Positions 3,664 to 61,765 of a stretch of DNA of 64,000 nucleotides are shown here, in pieces. The position numbers and the translations under genes were made by a program. The notes under the pieces are model-generated. The model was not told where the DNA came from. It saw only the letters and a list, made by a program, of their open reading frames with translations, and made no database searches. Position 1 is the stretch's first letter, and every line of letters begins with the position of its first letter. Source of the stretch: Nitrospiraceae bacterium (GTDB taxonomy: Bacteria; Nitrospirota; Nitrospiria; Nitrospirales; Nitrospiraceae); NCBI GenBank assembly GCA_050246315.1, contig JBFWWG010000005.1:160001-224000 (forward strand). Reading direction: 5' to 3'.

Positions 3664-3739
3664 GGGGGGCTAGCTCAGCTGGGAGAGCACTACGTTCGCA
3701 ACGTAGGGGTCGCGGGTTCGACTCCCGTGCCCTCCACCA
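3664..3739 (+). tRNA. tRNA-Ala (anticodon CGC)
   Basis: Full cloverleaf GGGGGGC...GCCCTCC-A-CCA; anticodon arm CTACG-TT-CGC-AA-CGTAG; T loop TTCGACT. Confidence 0.97.
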
Positions 3740-3900
3740 TACCTTGCTTGCCTAGTACCGCGGGCTCATCAGGCGCAGCCTTCTTCCTTGCGCCCGCAGA
3801 TAGACATCTCCAGTGAATTCGTTTTCTTGGTTTAACCTGCCAACCTTCGGTTGATGCGGCGGCTCTTCAGATGAGGCCTCTTATCCTTACCGCCGGAGGG
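3737..3900 (-). repeat. tRNA-Ala-linked array of structured repeat units (2 clear units, ~98 bp period; weaker relics to ~4330)
   Basis: Minus strand CTGCGGGC..GAAGGCTGCGCCTGATGA..GCCCGCGG..GGTATGG abuts the tRNA CCA. The second unit contains CAACCGAAGGTTG (3841-3853). Confidence 0.85.
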
Positions 3901-4574
3901 ACAGCTTCAGTCCAGCCCATCCTATTCCAATCCGCATTTCGTGAGATCCGGCGTCGATTCAACGGTATATCGCTGTTGACCTCGGCCGATCGACACCGAT
4001 AGGGTCCGTCTTAGAGGCCTGATTGCCTTTACCCTTCCACGAGTGTGGACACCTCGATGATCTCGGAATCGGCGCTAAGATCTTGCGGTTGCTGGCCGAG
4101 TCATTCGTCACGATCCTACAGGTATCCGGCCATGCCAAGAACGCGGCAAGCGGTTGGTGCATCTAATCCAGCGAGAGGTCCCCGTCTGGAAGGACGGGGT
4201 GAGGGCATGGTTCAGCGCTTTGCGCTGGACAAGTGCAGCTTGCATTGGAAGGAGACTTCGCCGGTCAGGGCGGGGTCTTCATGGCGAAACTCGCCAGTCC
4301 GCTTGTTTCATCGTCGGCGAGGGAAGACCTGACCTTATTTTGGCATCCCTGATCTGAGCGAGTGATGATAACCGCGTTGACTAATCGGTTGTCTGTGACC
4401 GCCGAGGAATGAACGGAAAAGAGCGAATTCGCACCGTCAGAACCGTGCGAAATCACACATTGAGGGAATTCTTCAAGGCGTGCACGGTATGTGCCTGGCC
4501 AGGCGGCGACCTGGCGCGACAGTTGCTCAATCATGCTGGGGTACCTGGTTCTGAGCCCTGCCAGTGTCTAAACA

Positions 4575-15600: not shown

Positions 15601-15798
15601 AGGCGGCCTCCTTGTATGGCGGCGATGGGAACCTCGTCACCTTAGCTAATCCCGGAATGGCCGTCAATCGGAGATGTCGATCCAAAGCGCCCTGTTCGTG
15701 GCGTTGATCCAGGACATGCAGTATGATTTGGTCGCATGCGGCATAGGGTGACCAACCCAGGTGATCAAGAAGGTTGGGGGCATCACTGGACAAGTTAG

Positions 15799-15862
15799 CT
15801 CCGGCCGTCGAGCGCAACGCAATTGGAGGGACGGCCGGTTCAACCGTGAGGTGGGAAGGAGG
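15799..15862 (+). repeat. Single variant structured repeat unit in a 5' UTR, ending at the Shine-Dalgarno
   Basis: CT-CCGGCCGTC...GACGGCCGG-TTCAACCGTGAGGTG..GGAGG, 4 nt before ATG 15867. Confidence 0.65.
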
Positions 15863-19780: not shown

Positions 19781-19840
19781 CCCTCCATACCAAGCTTGCT
19801 TCATCCGGCCGCCCATCGGATTCTTCTTTGCGTCTGGAGA
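19781..19840 (-). repeat. Single structured repeat unit in the GPx 5' UTR, ending at the Shine-Dalgarno
   Basis: CCATACCAAGCTTGCT (19785-19800) is identical to 26187-26202 at the tRNA-Pro 3' end. Confidence 0.75.
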
Positions 19841-19883
19841 TGACTCCTCCAGTGATTTCACCTTCTTCCGATGCTTGATCGAA

Positions 19884-26112: not shown

Positions 26113-26765
<653 letters not shown>

Positions 26766-26994
26766 CAGTGATCCCATCGTCGTCAACCAGTCTTGCCTCA
26801 CACTCTCCATGATGCGTACAAACCATCAGTCTGTGCCCTAGCCCCCATCTGAGCAGAGAAGGGCCTGGACATGGTACCGTGTCGTTGGCCACCTCATGTG
26901 GAACGATGCGCGTCAGCTCGCCTCTGTGACCGCACGAATCGCCCATTTGCTTGTGCCAGGAGGATGTTGTGCTAATCTGCCAGGAGCATTGACC

Positions 26995-27276: not shown

Positions 27277-27700
27277 CAGGATGTTGAAACAGTCCGCCAG
27301 CTTTGTTGGGGTACCCACTGTTGTACGTTCGTCGTGCCATGAGTCTCATGCGATGAGGCTCACCCTGAAGGTGTTTCTCCGTTTACCAAGATCAATCCGA
27401 CGAGCGAACGGATCACACGAACTGCGGATGAGACACGAAGCTTCCTTGTGGATTGCTCCAGCGGCGTCAATAGGGACGGGCTTTGCCTGATGAGCCGTTG
27501 GTTCACACGACGTGCGGTGTGCGCGCCTCACCACTTCGCTGGCTGCGCTCGCGAATGTAGGAAGGCGCGTCTCGGCGCAACGGGGTCGGGCAGGTGAGAA
27601 TACCGGCCTCTGTGAACATCCTGTGGGCTCTTCCGACTCCATGTGCGAGCGAGTGCGGGTCTATGATTGCAGGAGTGCCAAACAGTTTTTCAACGGCCTG
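27277..27700. mobile_element. MITE-like element A (424 bp), carrying two structured repeat units
   Basis: TIR CAGGATGTTGAAA / TTTCAACGGCCTG flanked by CTAG (27273-27276 and 27701-27704); internal second end GAACATCCTG at ~27614-27623. Confidence 0.8.
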
Positions 27701-31259: not shown

Positions 31260-31445
31260 ATGAGCGTCTCGCCTGAAGAGTTTTTCATGTACCTGACGAT
31301 CGGGCTCATCGTCGTGATCCCCGTGTCGGTGCGAATCTATCGCCGCCTCACCATGAATCGCACGGCGCAGATGCTGAAGGAAGAGTTTGGCGTGGACCCG
31401 GACTCGCCTGCTTCCGATACATCGACAGACTCGAAGCGATCCTAG
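31260..31445 (+). CDS. Small single-TM hypothetical protein
   Basis: RBS GAGGAG; one TM helix; 61 aa. Confidence 0.65.
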   Translation: MSVSPEEFFMYLTIGLIVVIPVSVRIYRRLTMNRTAQMLKEEFGVDPDSPASDTSTDSKRS

Positions 31446-31873
31446 CCCACATTGATTCATAACCGCCTCGACGGCAACCACGATTCGACCGGGTGCTCTT
31501 CTCCATGTAATGAGTCTACGATCTCGATATGAACAGGTGAAATGTCACGAACCAGCATGAATCATGGAAGCCAATCCGCATTATTCATGAACGATTCTAC
31601 TGCGACTGCGTATACGCCGCCGCGACAAGCCTGGCCAGTCGAAGGGATTTCTCCGGCGGCGACAATGAAGAGGGGCTCGGCCCGACGAGCCGTCGGCTCA
31701 CATGAAGTGCGGTATGGCGCACGGGCTCACCACTGGCGACCCCGACATACTGTTTCAAGTATGCCGTGGTCTCTCGTGGCTCCGCGTGGGGGTACCCATT
31801 GCTTTTCCGATACAATGGGTCCAACGCGTGGCGTCTCCGGACTTTCGTCACGAATCTTCATGAATAATGTGGG
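31446..31873. mobile_element. Family-D MITE-like element(s), probably two tandem copies; carries one structured repeat unit (31648-31717)
   Basis: CTAG-CCCACATTGATTCATAA ... TTCATGAATAATGTGGG-CTAG; internal CATGAATCATGG/CCAA/TCCGCATTATTCATGAACGATTC junction at ~31556-31597. Confidence 0.78.
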
Positions 31874-31948
31874 CTAGGTACTGGCGGACCCTCTGTTGCT
31901 GAAGAAGATCTGATTCGGACTGATGACAATTTCGGGAGGAGGAGACGA

Positions 31949-32362
31949 GTGATCCGACAGATATCATGCGCCGGTCGGCATCGATCATGGCCATGCGCGA
32001 TCCTCGGACTCGTGGTCGTGGCAGGCGTGGTCAGCCTGCTGGCCGGTGGGTCTTGTGCCAACCAGGAGGCCGGAACGACCCCAGCCGATGTCCAAAAGGG
32101 CGAAGGGCTCTTCAAAGCGAACTGTTTCCGTTGTCATGGAGAGCGGGGAGCCGGTACCGCTCAGGGGCCGCCGCTCGTCCACAAGATCTACGAGCCGAAT
32201 CACCACGCTGACGCAGCGTTTCAGCGAGCGGCCGCCAGCGGGGTTCGGGCGCACCATTGGCAGTTTGGAGATATGCCCAAGATCGACGGCGTGACGCCGC
32301 AGGAAGTGGCGGAGATCATCCGATACGTGCGATGGCTGCAACGCCAGGCCGGAATTTATTGA
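31949..32362 (+). CDS. Monoheme cytochrome c
   Basis: RBS GGAGGAG, signal/lipoprotein peptide, CFRCH, distal DMP. Confidence 0.9.
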   Translation: MIRQISCAGRHRSWPCAILGLVVVAGVVSLLAGGSCANQEAGTTPADVQKGEGLFKANCFRCHGERGAGTAQGPPLVHKIYEPNHHADAAFQRAAASGVRAHHWQFGDMPKIDGVTPQEVAEIIRYVRWLQRQAGIY

Positions 32363-32505
32363 GTCTGGCCGCGAGAGAACTTCGACCAACCGTCCCGTTT
32401 GACAGTCTGATTTTCCGATGCGTAAGCTTACAAGGAACGTTACCGCGGGCGATGTGGGCCGGCGGCTATTGGGCAGAGGACAAGGAGAGAAGAGGCTTGT
32501 GACGC

Positions 32506-32840
32506 GCCTTCTCCGGCTGCCGCAAACCATGTGGGTGGCAACCGATTCAACCGCAGGTGATGGAGGCAAGCGATGCAGACCCGTTACAGTGTTTTTCTCC
32601 GCCCGACATGACCCATGTGATGAGTGGCCGATCCAACGAAGGTTCGTACGGAGAAAGACGAGAGAAATCCTGTGGGGGATGGGCTTCGGCCACCAGGAGC
32701 AATCGAAGGGCGGCTGGTTCAACCGAAGGTTGGATTCAATATGAAAAGAGGCCAAGAAACTGTAGGGTTTCTCCGGCGGCGTCAATGGGGAGGGGCTGCG
32801 CCCAATGTGCCGCCGGCTCAACCGAAGGTTGGTATGGAGG
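32506..32840 (+). repeat. Four-unit array of the structured repeat in the SPFH gene leader
   Basis: CAAC(C)GMAGGT hairpins at ~32548, 32634, 32720 and 32819 (86/86/99 bp period); last unit ends GGTATGGAGG, 5 nt before ATG 32846. Confidence 0.85.
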
Positions 32841-32845
32841 ACCTT

Positions 32846-33688
32846 ATGCGGAATGGAATGCAGGCCTGTGTCTTGACGTCCGCCATGCTGGGCGTGATGA
32901 CCCTCTCCGCGGGCTGCGCCCTCGTGGCGATCGATGCGGGACATGAAGGAGTCATGGTCGAAAAGCCATTCTTCTTCGGACATGGGGGAGTCGATCCCGA
33001 CCCGGTCAAGACAGGCCGCCAGACGGTGGCCATCACGACGCAGGTGATCGATGTGGATGTGCGTCCGATCCAATATTCGGAGCACTTCGACATCATCTCG
33101 TCGGAGAACGCGCCGGTGTCGTTTGACGCCTTCATGATCGCGAATGTGATCGAGGGACGGTCGCCGGATCTCATCAGCCGATTCGGACCGAACTGGTATG
33201 CGAACAACGTGAAGGAGGCCTTTCGTACGATGGTCCGGGAAGAGGTCCAGAAATACCCGCTCTTTCAGTTGACCACTGATCCCACCACCCGGACGAAATT
33301 GCAGGAAGCTATCGCCCAGCAATTGCGCGTGAACTTGCTGGAGAAGCAGAACATCCCGGTTCGTCTCAATCGGGTCGTCGTCGGCAGCATCTTGCCACCC
33401 AAAGGCGTGCTGGAACAGACCGCCCAAACGATCATTCAGGAGCAGCGCCGTATCACGATGATCGAATTCCAGAAAGCCGAAGAGGCCCGGGAGAAGGCCG
33501 AGAAGCAGCGTGGCATCGCAGACCGCGCCTATCGGGAGGCCCTAGGGCTCACCGCGCCGGAATTCGTGGATTTGCGCCGCATCGAAGTCCAGAAGGAGAT
33601 CGTGCAGCATTCGCCGTCGGCCCTGACCGTCATCATGGGATTGGAGCGAATGGGGATCAACCTCCCTCCGTTAGGATCGGAGAAATAA
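32846..33688 (+). CDS. SPFH/Band 7 domain protein (probable lipoprotein)
   Basis: LSAGC, IDAGHEGVMV, C-terminal EQ/EA-rich coiled coil; RBS GGAGG. Confidence 0.85.
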   Translation: MRNGMQACVLTSAMLGVMTLSAGCALVAIDAGHEGVMVEKPFFFGHGGVDPDPVKTGRQTVAITTQVIDVDVRPIQYSEHFDIISSENAPVSFDAFMIANVIEGRSPDLISRFGPNWYANNVKEAFRTMVREEVQKYPLFQLTTDPTTRTKLQEAIAQQLRVNLLEKQNIPVRLNRVVVGSILPPKGVLEQTAQTIIQEQRRITMIEFQKAEEAREKAEKQRGIADRAYREALGLTAPEFVDLRRIEVQKEIVQHSPSALTVIMGLERMGINLPPLGSEK

Positions 33689-44168: not shown

Positions 44169-44300
44169 GATGGTTATGCGGATCAGGGTTCATGATGAAA
44201 TGGGCGATGCCGACGCTGAGACCATGCTACGACAATGGGATCGAAATCGGGAAGAGGACGAAAGTAGGGGGCTGTGAAGGATCAATCGTACCGGAAGGTC

Positions 44301-44463
44301 CTCTCCGGCGGCGGCAATGGGGAGGGCTGCACCCGATGAGCCGCCGGTTCACACGAAGGTGAATTATCTGGAAGTGAAGGAATCACTTGAGGGGTTCTCG
44401 GCGGGCGGCAATAAAGAGAGGCTCCGCCTGAATAGCCCGCCGATCAACCGAAGGTTGGTATGG
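44301..44463 (+). repeat. tRNA-Arg-linked array of two structured repeat units
   Basis: CCGGCGGC/GCCGCCGG (44305-44347) and TCGGCGGGC/GCCCGCCGA (44398-44443), then CAACCGAAGGTTG-GTA-TGG, where TGG is the tRNA CCA. Confidence 0.88.
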
Positions 44464-44537
44464 TGCCCCCGACACGAATTGAACGTGCGACACGCGGTTT
44501 AGGAAACCGCTGCTCTATCCAACTGAGCTACGGGGGC
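44461..44537 (-). tRNA. tRNA-Arg (anticodon CCT)
   Basis: GCCCCCG...CGGGGGC-A-CCA; arm GCGGT-TT-CCT-AA-ACCGC. Confidence 0.96.
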
Positions 44538-61333: not shown

Positions 61334-61419
61334 GGTCAGGTACCCAAGTGGCCAACGGGGGCAGACTGTAAATCTGCTGCTTACGAGCTTCCAAGGTTCG
61401 AATCCTTGCCTGACCACCA
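61334..61419 (+). tRNA. tRNA-Tyr (GTA)
   Basis: GGTCAGG...CCTGACC-A-CCA; GCAGA-CT-GTA-AA-TCTGC; long variable arm. Confidence 0.97.
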
Positions 61420-61485
61420 TCACCAAGCTCCGGACGAGCCGGAATTAAGAGCTGCTATCTCCAGAGGTGGTCGAAAAAGATCGAG

Positions 61486-61560
61486 GCGGGCGTAGCTCAG
61501 TGGTAGAGTCCCAGCCTTCCAAGCTGGCTGTCACGGGTTCAAATCCCGTCGCCCGCTCCA
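61486..61560 (+). tRNA. tRNA-Gly (TCC)
   Basis: GCGGGCG...CGCCCGC-T-CCA; CCAGC-CT-TCC-AA-GCTGG. Confidence 0.97.
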
Positions 61561-61689
61561 AAAAGAAGATGTCAAGCGGTTACTCGCGAAACGTCACTCG
61601 TCGGAAAGCGGACCGGCTAGAGCAAGAGGCTAGCGGTTTTTTGTTGTATGGGTATTGACCGTTGACGCATGGCGAATGACAGTGGATGT

Positions 61690-61765
61690 GCCCACGTAGC
61701 TCAGTTGGTAGAGCACGTCCTTGGTAAGGACGAGGTCACGCGTTCGATCCGCGTCGTGGGCTCCA
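61690..61765 (+). tRNA. tRNA-Thr (GGT)
   Basis: GCCCACG...CGTGGGC-T-CCA; CGTCC-TT-GGT-AA-GGACG. Confidence 0.97.

Follow-up and report, generated by a model that had tools for sequence, protein, structure and literature searches.

A short hairpin repeat joined to the CCA end of tRNA genes in Nitrospiraceae: a candidate mobile element with a YCA target rule

How do several different tRNA genes come to run, without a single spacer base, into copies of one short repeat? The question arises from a 64,000-nt stretch of a Nitrospiraceae bacterium (GenBank assembly GCA_050246315.1, contig JBFWWG010000005.1, positions 160,001–224,000 of the forward strand), called the window below. ARAGORN found seven tRNA genes in this 64-kb window, three of which pass gaplessly from CCA into TACC and the rest of the repeat unit: tRNA-Ala reads CCA/TACCTTGCTT, tRNA-Pro CCA/TACCAAGCTT and tRNA-Arg CCA/TACCAACCTT, with the slash marking the junction. 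On reading the sequence, the orientation of the repeat relative to the tRNA was identical at all three. A preliminary description made from the letters of the window had reported just this base-precise, same-orientation fusion, and it holds. The answer that we favor, with confidence poised at about the halfway mark, is that the unit is a small non-autonomous mobile DNA element of one bacterial family that inserts one-way on the 3′ side of YCA.

The window lies on contig C5 of its genome (G000; 4.39 Mb in 30 contigs), for which the complete genome of a congener (G001) served as the main comparison. Units were scored with R1, a covariance model of the unit that was built mostly from tRNA-proximal units and therefore favors proximal ones. 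At tRNA-Ala(CGC) (3664–3739, plus strand), whose CCA is at 3737–3739, the TACC of the first unit follows directly (3740–3816, 70.7 bits with R1), and a second unit (3838–3913, 52.2 bits) and a decayed, weakly matching third (3930–4005, 11.7 bits, E = 0.13) lie downstream on the same strand. tRNA-Pro(CGG) (26113–26189, plus strand) is followed by five plus-strand units that span 26190–26771, namely 26190–26265 (74.0 bits), 26293–26364 (32.6 bits), 26376–26457 (42.9 bits), 26471–26547 (26.8 bits) and 26699–26771 (23.3 bits). tRNA-Arg(CCT) (44461–44537, minus strand) has two on the minus strand, at 44383–44460 (85.7 bits; also evident in the sequence itself) and 44288–44366 (54.9 bits). All three tRNAs were called by ARAGORN and by Rfam RF00005. 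Tandem Repeats Finder missed the unit arrays of the window.

We then asked what the unit consists of. Full units of 93–99 nt, running from TACC to YCA, are seen in fresh G001 arrays, and about 79 nt form the conserved core. The 5′ part is TAC, a hairpin of 5 bp whose loop is of the YTT(C)G type, and GA; the middle is an 8-bp GC stem around about 28 nt that include a 4-bp hairpin; the 3′ part is GGAGAAACACCTCCAGTG followed by a pyrimidine-rich tail that, in well-kept copies, finishes in YCA. We found no terminal inverted repeats on reading the unit, as its ends are not inverted copies of each other. Covariation backs all three helices: 92.0% of cells pair, compared with 76.7% in shuffled alignments (none of 500 shuffles reached 92.0%), the covariation score of the unit alignment is 0.349 against 0.117 in shuffles, and sliding a helix partner by 1–3 columns gave at most 45.5% pairing. 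The helices also came out of single-sequence folds, at z-scores that are modest (−0.5 to −3.0). Mismatches in the long stem are about equally G:T (11) and A:C (17) among 576 cells, and so give no sign of selection on one RNA strand alone; this is expected if both strands, or the DNA, are read. In other genera, the termini are kept (WACC plus hairpin, and GGAKAAACACCTCCAGTG) and the cores vary, as would be expected if a mobilizing machinery recognizes the termini.

The unit did not correspond to a known RNA family. At gathering score, Rfam yielded only tRNAs in the window and no family for the unit, and a search of 31400–33100 at E-values up to 10 gave only chance-level matches and nothing relevant. 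We discarded the idea that the GAUGA loop is hammerhead-like or k-turn-like, since the strand order did not fit and no Rfam ribozyme matched, and likewise an intrinsic terminator, since no T-run follows the unit stems. Ordinary terminators follow other tRNAs of the genome, for example tRNA-Pro(GGG) and tRNA-Gln(TTG).

Genome-wide, nhmmer (E < 0.01) found 142 units at 90 loci of G000, with one unit at 59 loci, two at 18, three at seven, four at five and six at one. CCA/TACC plus a unit is present at 13 of 46 tRNA genes, where about 0.2 would be expected (46 × 1/256), so that tabulating the 3′ flanks, as the preliminary description had suggested, revealed the enrichment at tRNA ends that it anticipated. 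The thirteenth occupied gene, tRNA-Lys(CTT), lies together with its array exactly at a contig break (C22 end/C11 end), which suggests that the repeats interrupt assembly. In addition to the 13, a unit follows the Leu-CAG, Met and Ser-GCT tRNAs across a decayed junction. At the tmRNA gene (C1, c[202840,203186]; tag ANQELALAA), the terminal CCA likewise leads into an array of TACC units, three of them above threshold, and a duplicated tRNA-Ser-like 3′ fragment at C2:515479 shows the same junction.

To describe the junction, we sorted the 109 unit starts at model position 2 or lower by context and preceding trinucleotide. CCA precedes all 13 unit starts that follow tRNAs, the single starts after tmRNA and after the tRNA 3′ fragment, and 21 of 23 at gene starts, where the arrangement is CAT-N(3-14)-CCTCCA/TACC. 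Two families of repeats resembling MITEs (miniature inverted-repeat transposable elements) host further units: 16 starts lie inside type A repeats (10 CCA, five CTA) and 10 inside type C repeats (all ACA). The 14 starts nested in other units follow CTA in nine cases and CCA in three, and the remaining 31, mostly inner array units, follow CCA in 11. Among inner array units, those starting with TACC follow CCA or YCA and those starting with AACC, CACC or GACC do not. The gene-start copies lie on the strand opposite to the gene, immediately upstream of TGGAGG and the start codon, CCTCCA being the reverse of the Shine–Dalgarno site. From their N-termini, the proteins encoded downstream seem to include lipoproteins, LeuA-like, L25-like and FlgC-like proteins and response regulators; they are mutually unrelated. 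At tRNA-Ser(TGA), a unit in reverse orientation adjoins the 5′ end of the gene, its flank CCTCC being the complement of GGAGG in the tRNA.

Some sites bear on which bases belong to the element. At three unit-free gene-start sites (two G000 sites compared with G001, plus the orthologous gene in two other genera, with the Shine–Dalgarno sequence AGGAGG), T rather than A follows CCTCC or CCCCC, and at the reversed tRNA-Ser(TGA) junction the tRNA contributes CC only. At gene-start and reversed tRNA-Ser sites, the A of CCA may thus travel with the element.

The fixed junction and orientation, nesting, copying between loci, conserved termini around variable cores, patchy copy number and restriction to one lineage together suit a non-autonomous mobile element better than any other reading. 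In such a scheme, the unit would insert immediately 3′ of YCA, mostly CCA, in a single orientation, and would favor two kinds of site: tRNA and tmRNA genes at their CCA end, and the CCTCCA that complements the Shine–Dalgarno site. Its own terminal YCA would recreate the landing site at each insertion, which would give rise to head-to-tail arrays, nested copies and occasional additions beside the tRNA; the arrays would later be reshaped as segments between the repeated junctions are duplicated in tandem or deleted. We infer that spread is by DNA insertion and depends on an enzyme acting in trans, which may cut and join both ends strand-specifically at YCA beside the hairpins by a chemistry like that of the IS200/IS605 and repetitive extragenic palindromic (REP) systems. 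As in IS200/IS605, the left flank would be target and the right end the element's own. The unit shares with IS200/IS605-type elements a fixed short target, one orientation, insertion on its 3′ side and the absence of inverted terminal repeats. Of the two mechanisms offered in the preliminary description, CCA-targeted insertion is the simplest description of the junctions; the other, tRNA-primed copying, is taken up below.

We next consider how units are related to each other. The nearest relative is at another locus for 88 of 96 near-full units, and for 44 of 52 among array units, so local duplication alone does not account for the arrays; the cross-locus copying that had been suspected from the window is thereby borne out. 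Fresh G001 arrays are head-to-tail series of TACC...YCA without spacers, in which some copies are identical and some belong to differing subfamilies (e.g. locus 0). Nested copies in G001 follow GGCCA, CCGCCA and CCCTCTA within their host units. Head units have their nearest relative elsewhere in another head in 55 of 66 cases, on a background of 69% heads and with inflation by co-copying in MITE-like repeats; clustering of proximal units across arrays, put forward earlier as a test, is in this sense weak.

Occupancy differs between the congeners. Units are found at the Arg-CCT, Arg-TCG, Arg-CCG, Glu-CTC, Gly-CCC and Leu-CAG tRNAs in G000 and not G001, at no fewer than two tRNAs (at least Arg-TCT and Ser-CGA) in G001 and not G000, and at nine in both. 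Unrelated, island-like sequence follows the G001 tRNAs that have no units. In 800 kb of G001 DNA there are 23 arrays, 14 of which can be placed in G000, and the number of units differs at all 14. A further assembly from a relative, G002, is a mixture of two strains or species: it has 9% contamination and holds both G000-like and nearly G001-identical versions of several tRNA loci. Comparisons that rest on it are used with care.

Some of these differences are additions at the CCA end. At tRNA-Glu(CTC), G000 has two extra units before the first unit of G002, as a block that runs from TACC to ...TACCA; at tRNA-Cys, a comparison of genome pairs shows one additional proximal unit in G000; and of two gene-start arrays, one has three identical head units in G001 and the other two, all absent from G000. 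Locus 6 has the opposite pattern, since the units missing in G000 are decayed, head-side ones in G001, which looks like deletion. Repeated addition at CCA, as first proposed, is thus supported in part. The accompanying statement that the distal units of the longer arrays are the most decayed fits the window, where tRNA-proximal units score highest under a model that favors them. Across the genome, the gradient is weak or absent: among detectable units, with those too decayed left out of the tallies, the head scored above the second unit in 18 of 31 arrays, below it in 10 and equal in three by paired positions, and the count was 15 to 15 with a hidden Markov model (HMM) made from inner units.

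The unit is widespread in one family. R1 matched 42 of 61 family genomes and 28 of 39 genera, with 1 to more than 70 units per matching genome (among at most 77 scored candidates); in a phylum-wide sample, it matched 13 of 14 genomes of the family and none of 106 genomes from 19 other families. Both surveys were run with Infernal's stricter filters, and the family tallies take in two unpublished genomes (G009 and G066), on which alone no statement rests. Independently of the model, the pattern GTTCRA-N15-CCAWACC (T-loop, acceptor end, CCA, TACC or AACC) occurs in 55 of 61 family genomes, up to 18 times per genome. The reversed control pattern occurs 0–1 times per strand per genome, 12 times in total over the 61. 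In other genera, the junction is mostly CCA/AACC.

We also asked if the genome encodes a protein that could move the unit. Y1_Tnp (PF01797) has eight matches in G000, four of them full length at about 310 aa, and the best named relative of these proteins is the REP-associated tyrosine transposase (RAYT) NF047646, at 76 bits against a cut-off of 80. RAYT-like Y1 genes were rejected as the mobilizer since they are not flanked by units and do not co-occur with them over 61 genomes. The IS91-type Y2 transposase profile PF04986 matched neither in five genomes nor in the control genomes, and so carries no weight either way. The two reverse transcriptases, paralogues of 360 aa (C5:67538–68731 and C3:244931–246037), have no unit near either; their best family is group II intron reverse transcriptase at 140.7 bits, far under the 300-bit cut-off, and they presumably resemble the enzymes of diversity-generating retroelements. 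Phage_integrase (PF00589) is absent from contig C5, its six matches in G000 all being on other contigs, one of them beside tRNA-Ser(CGA). The last 22 nt of the three window tRNAs have no second copy in the window at up to four substitutions, and the early observation that neither an integrase nor a duplicated tRNA 3′ fragment is present therefore stands for the contig and the window, respectively. A TA target duplication of the IS630-like kind was also set aside: nested copies can be read as TA...TA, but there are no inverted ends and the pattern is not general. By eye, flanks of unit-free tRNAs seldom begin with TA.

Several observations weigh against one-way insertion by a trans-acting enzyme. 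Profile searches for Y1, reverse transcriptase and integrase proteins found no mobilizing gene. No unit flanks the four full-length Y1 loci even with the R1 filters off (the best score was 15.4 bits and was not unit-like on reading), and two unit-rich genomes, G007 and G047 (95% and 100% complete, respectively), have no PF01797 match. Units without a RAYT-like protein occur in G007, G047, G050, G071 and G069 (31–60 or more units), and a RAYT-like protein without units in G044, G051, G031, G013 and G011. Known IS200/IS605 elements show replication-strand bias; here we detected none, with 34 loci on the G-rich and 41 on the C-rich strand, judged by GC skew as a proxy because the contigs are unordered. 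We obtained no clean pair of filled and empty sites: at three loci that are unit-free in G000, the far flank fails to align with G001, so that the right boundary is placed only provisionally, and duplication of 3 bp of target, or a recombination core, could apply.

The trinucleotide is, moreover, insufficient as a target. G000 has 161,072 CCA sites on both strands, 7,377 of them in the 240.7 kb of DNA free of open reading frames (ORFs), that is, lying in no stop-to-stop ORF of at least 120 aa. The ends of tRNA and tmRNA genes make up 47 of these 7,377 sites (0.64%) yet 15 of the 61 CCA-preceded unit starts. For comparison, CCTCCA occurs 152 times in ORF-free DNA and 3,671 times overall, and CCTCCATACC 33 times. 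This preference of about 40-fold for tRNA ends means that something more is recognized or selected. One possibility, which we hold only tentatively and consider unlikely as it stands, is that these bacteria have a system for insertion at the 3′ ends of genes for stable RNAs, one that recognizes the acceptor stem plus CCA and places a 95-nt hairpin element exactly after CCA. Such a system would read that end as folded DNA or via the RNA product, with CCTCCA acting as a sequence mimic. If real, it would be a class of mobile element without a known transposase family, and it would give bacteria, for the first time, an equivalent of the tRNA-gene-homing elements of eukaryotes.

Selection for function is the likeliest alternative, although we think it improbable as the main explanation. 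The unit would then be an RNA or DNA module, serving as a tRNA or tmRNA trailer and, on the other strand, as a leader upstream of ribosome-binding sites, that is kept by selection and homogenized or spread by recombination, and the exact junction would come from a constraint of function (a site of processing or protection, for instance) instead of target choice. A case within the window is a four-unit array in the 5′ untranslated region (5′ UTR) of a plus-strand lipoprotein-like gene with its ATG at 32846. The array lies on the minus strand at 32509–32834 (87.3, 16.1, 12.1 and 10.7 bits), and its head unit (32757–32834) abuts TGGAGG, the Shine–Dalgarno site of the gene. Contigs from four RNA-library runs of two studies start at 32444–32457 and reach the coding sequence after crossing all four units; in one, an adapter is seen at 32444, and the contigs hold neither strand nor level information. 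These starts fit a promoter-like TTGACA...TAAGCT upstream of the array (within 32400–32848), which is conserved in genera without units. With an apparent transcript start near 32444, the leader before the ATG is 400 nt and consists of nearly nothing but the four units. RNA downstream of tRNA-Pro had low depth, and contigs ending at 26189 had unrelated loose ends.

All four genomes of the genus have this leader array, a fact that, together with its transcription in mRNA, favors a selected module. The same is true of the CCA/WACC junctions in 55 of 61 family genomes, often on the same tRNA species, against 12 control matches, of the compensatory changes that preserve the helices, and of the first hairpin plus TTTT in G007, which resembles a small terminator after tRNA-Ala. 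At tRNA-Thr(CGT) and tRNA-Pro(TGG), the G000 and G001 arrays agree at each position and are thus positionally orthologous. Shared junctions on the same tRNA species across many genera and orthologous arrays would be explained equally well by old, vertically kept and perhaps useful copies, and they count against the mobile-element reading. A single RNA function is unlikely, however, as the two main contexts place the unit in opposite transcriptional orientations, and units also occur within other units and two MITE-like repeats. Two thirds of the tRNAs lack a unit, some having ordinary terminators instead; occupancy is unequal between congeners; the genes after leader copies are functionally unrelated; no U-tract follows the GC stem; and 19 of 61 family genomes have no model match. 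Since tRNA-linked copies persist across genera, a functional role could exist as well as, and not instead of, mobility.

A close second to the mobile-element reading, doubtful in our judgment and rather more so than a selected module, is an excised circle or multimer of about 95 nt whose YCA/TACC joint recombines with a chromosomal CCA core. A host or unlinked recombinase of the tyrosine or serine type would act on it, as with integron cassettes or Xer-hijacking elements, leaving CCA on both sides, and an array would build up through repeated integration or through multimers integrating. YCA at both unit flanks, spacerless YCA/TACC arrays and runs of identical units (three copies), which are compatible with multimers, agree with this. 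So does the fact that the 3′ ends of tRNA and tmRNA genes are classic integrase targets; one integrase lies beside tRNA-Ser(CGA) in G000, and the model predicts no replication-strand bias, as observed. Set against these points, no recombinase is linked to any unit, known att cores are far longer than 3 bp, and T in place of A after CCTCC or CCCCC at the three unit-free gene starts means that CCA may not pre-exist.

Copying through RNA is considerably less probable. A reverse transcriptase would extend the CCA-3′OH of a tRNA on a unit RNA ending in ...GGUAUGG or would switch templates, leaving the unit RNA at its 5′ end for a tRNA or tmRNA at its CCA-3′ end, with the chimeric cDNA replacing the flank of the gene. 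In its favor, the partners include both classes of stable RNA that end in CCA (tRNAs and tmRNA), head-to-tail YCA/TACC joints are what end-to-end template switching would produce, units are transcribed in at least one 5′ UTR, and G000 has the two reverse transcriptase genes. About 23 antisense CCTCCA junctions, the reversed tRNA-Ser(TGA) junction and many nested ones are, however, not the 3′ end of any RNA. The unit has just 3 nt in common with tRNAs: CCA alone is common to the 13 tRNA ends, and we found no primer-binding site of 8–18 nt of the sort expected of a tRNA-primed retroelement. Both reverse transcriptases are unlinked to units and far under their family cut-off, and no route of cDNA into the chromosome is evident. 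As most junctions involve no RNA 3′ end and complementarity stops at CCA, the tRNA-primed copying of the preliminary description is unlikely and not upheld.

Local tandem duplication of a sequence that chanced to adjoin tRNAs, for which the identical neighboring copies at C9:27471–27700 in G000 and at loci 14, 12 and 2 in G001 speak, is very improbable as the sole cause given that the nearest relative is in the same array for only eight of 96 near-full units, that subfamilies differ within arrays (G001 locus 0) and that one junction recurs at 13 tRNAs, tmRNA and about 23 gene starts.

Beyond these arrays, the window holds scattered and decayed units. A degenerate solitary unit follows CCCCTCCA (19788–19855, plus strand, 33.2 bits) and includes part of the 16-nt match between 19785–19800 and 26187–26202 that had been remarked on earlier and is real; a weak degenerate unit lies at 15783–15857 (minus strand, 19.7 bits, E = 0.00018). 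In the tRNA-Tyr/Gly/Thr cluster at 61334–61765, upstream of an elongation-factor region, the flanks of tRNA-Tyr (CCA/TCACCAAGCTCCGG) and tRNA-Thr(GGT) resemble decayed unit starts. Both flanks start unit-like in G001, with CCA/TACCAAGC at tRNA-Tyr and CCA/TACTAAGC at tRNA-Thr(GGT); in G002, the tRNA-Tyr flank does so (CCA/TACCAAGC) and the tRNA-Thr(GGT) flank does not.

Both MITE-like repeats are represented in the window. The type A copy (31440–31885, minus-strand reading) is one of about 19 in the genome. Its ends TAGCCCACATTATTCATGA are inverted, and its body of 130–170 nt, which finishes ...GCGAGCCCGCCCGCCA, is conserved and covarying, with one embedded unit (31636–31714, minus strand, 65.9 bits) at the junction GCGCCA/TACC. 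The type C repeat (27300–27620; about 12–18 copies, with inverted ends resembling GCAGGATGGTCAAAAAGGCCG) carries its unit in the loop of a central palindrome, at the junction GGTACA/TACC; the embedded units here are at 27442–27519 and 27362–27429 (minus strand, 54.6 and 29.1 bits). Each type probably goes back to one old unit insertion that was later copied along with the host repeat.

A second small element of about 170–190 nt was encountered at other tRNA ends. It lies at C2:515285–515478 in G000, with further examples in other genera (L011, L014, L016 and L157), follows the tRNA CCA and ends in a duplicate of the T-arm and acceptor 3′ end of the tRNA. It is a GC-rich double hairpin, GGGGAGC..ACGAGGGGGC.GGCCCCCTC.GT.GGAGC, and from its sequence it is reminiscent of an integrative element in miniature or of a tRNA-like gene. 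TACC or AACC units come after its duplicated CCA in G000 and G016 (L014). Unit-free tRNAs (G000 C2:507736–508419, and several in G001 and G002) often have (A)TTTTTCAA... flanks and once an integrase gene, which is the picture that genomic islands inserted at a tRNA 3′ end would give.

In our reading, the unit is a small non-autonomous repeat with an unusual, testable target rule. If the element is mobile, the rule YCA/TACC...YCA/ would describe a specificity of cleavage or joining that matches no known enzyme in these genomes and would be a lead to a new mobilizing activity; if it is kept for function, the whole family would have a module that shapes the trailers of tRNAs and the leaders of mRNAs. 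In either case, about 140 copies per genome located in UTRs matter for annotation, and the tRNA-plus-array found at a contig break matters for assembly. The repeat also bears on how tRNA-flank polymorphism is read in these bacteria of sludge and wastewater.

How, then, does the unit compare with known systems? Like REP sequences and REPINs with their RAYTs, it is a short, structured, intergenic and lineage-specific repeat of about a hundred copies with a conserved tetranucleotide (here TACC) before a hairpin, in a genome with RAYT-like genes. In contrast, its copies are direct and head-to-tail on one strand instead of inverted pairs, and the RAYT-like genes are neither flanked by units nor co-occurring with them across genomes. 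To our knowledge, base-precise fusion to tRNA CCA ends is no property of REPs. It shares with the IS200/IS605-derived palindrome-associated transposable elements (PATEs) asymmetric hairpin ends without inverted terminal repeats and one-orientation insertion 3′ of a short sequence that becomes the left flank, and differs from them in the absence of Y1 proteins from G007 and G047, the lack of strand bias, and a trinucleotide target with a preference for tRNA ends. Integrase-borne islands and prophages also target tRNA and tmRNA genes at the 3′ end, but the unit has no integrase on its contig and no duplicated tRNA 3′ segment, is only about 95 nt long and forms arrays; by contrast, the second element of about 170–190 nt does carry a duplicated tRNA 3′ segment, as such islands do.

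ERIC/IRU elements of enterobacteria and Correia/NEMIS elements of Neisseria are likewise small structured repeats inside transcribed leaders and trailers. ERIC/IRU and Correia elements have inverted terminal repeats and TA duplications; the unit is without inverted ends and without a demonstrable TA duplication. Integron attC arrays resemble it as folded sites in which structure is conserved and sequence variable, and they grow at one end, a polarity that is partly supported here; unlike them, unit arrays have neither cassette genes nor an integron integrase beside them. Tandem repeats are found downstream of the tyrT gene of E. coli. As far as the accessible parts of the literature go, no bacterial repeat fused to tRNA CCA ends is described, and the sole related result concerns the tRNA-linked short tandem repeats of Entamoeba. 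These, together with Ty3 and the TRE elements of Dictyostelium, are comparable as repeats or insertions associated with tRNA genes. The eukaryotic elements lie at a distance from the gene and insert via RNA polymerase III factors or by means that have not been worked out. None of them is, as far as we know, fused to CCA, which eukaryotic tRNA genes do not encode, and we know of no small structured bacterial repeat joined base-for-base to the CCA of tRNA or tmRNA. We do not claim membership in the REP or IS200/IS605 groups for the unit: each of the near systems shares some of its features and fails on a defining one.

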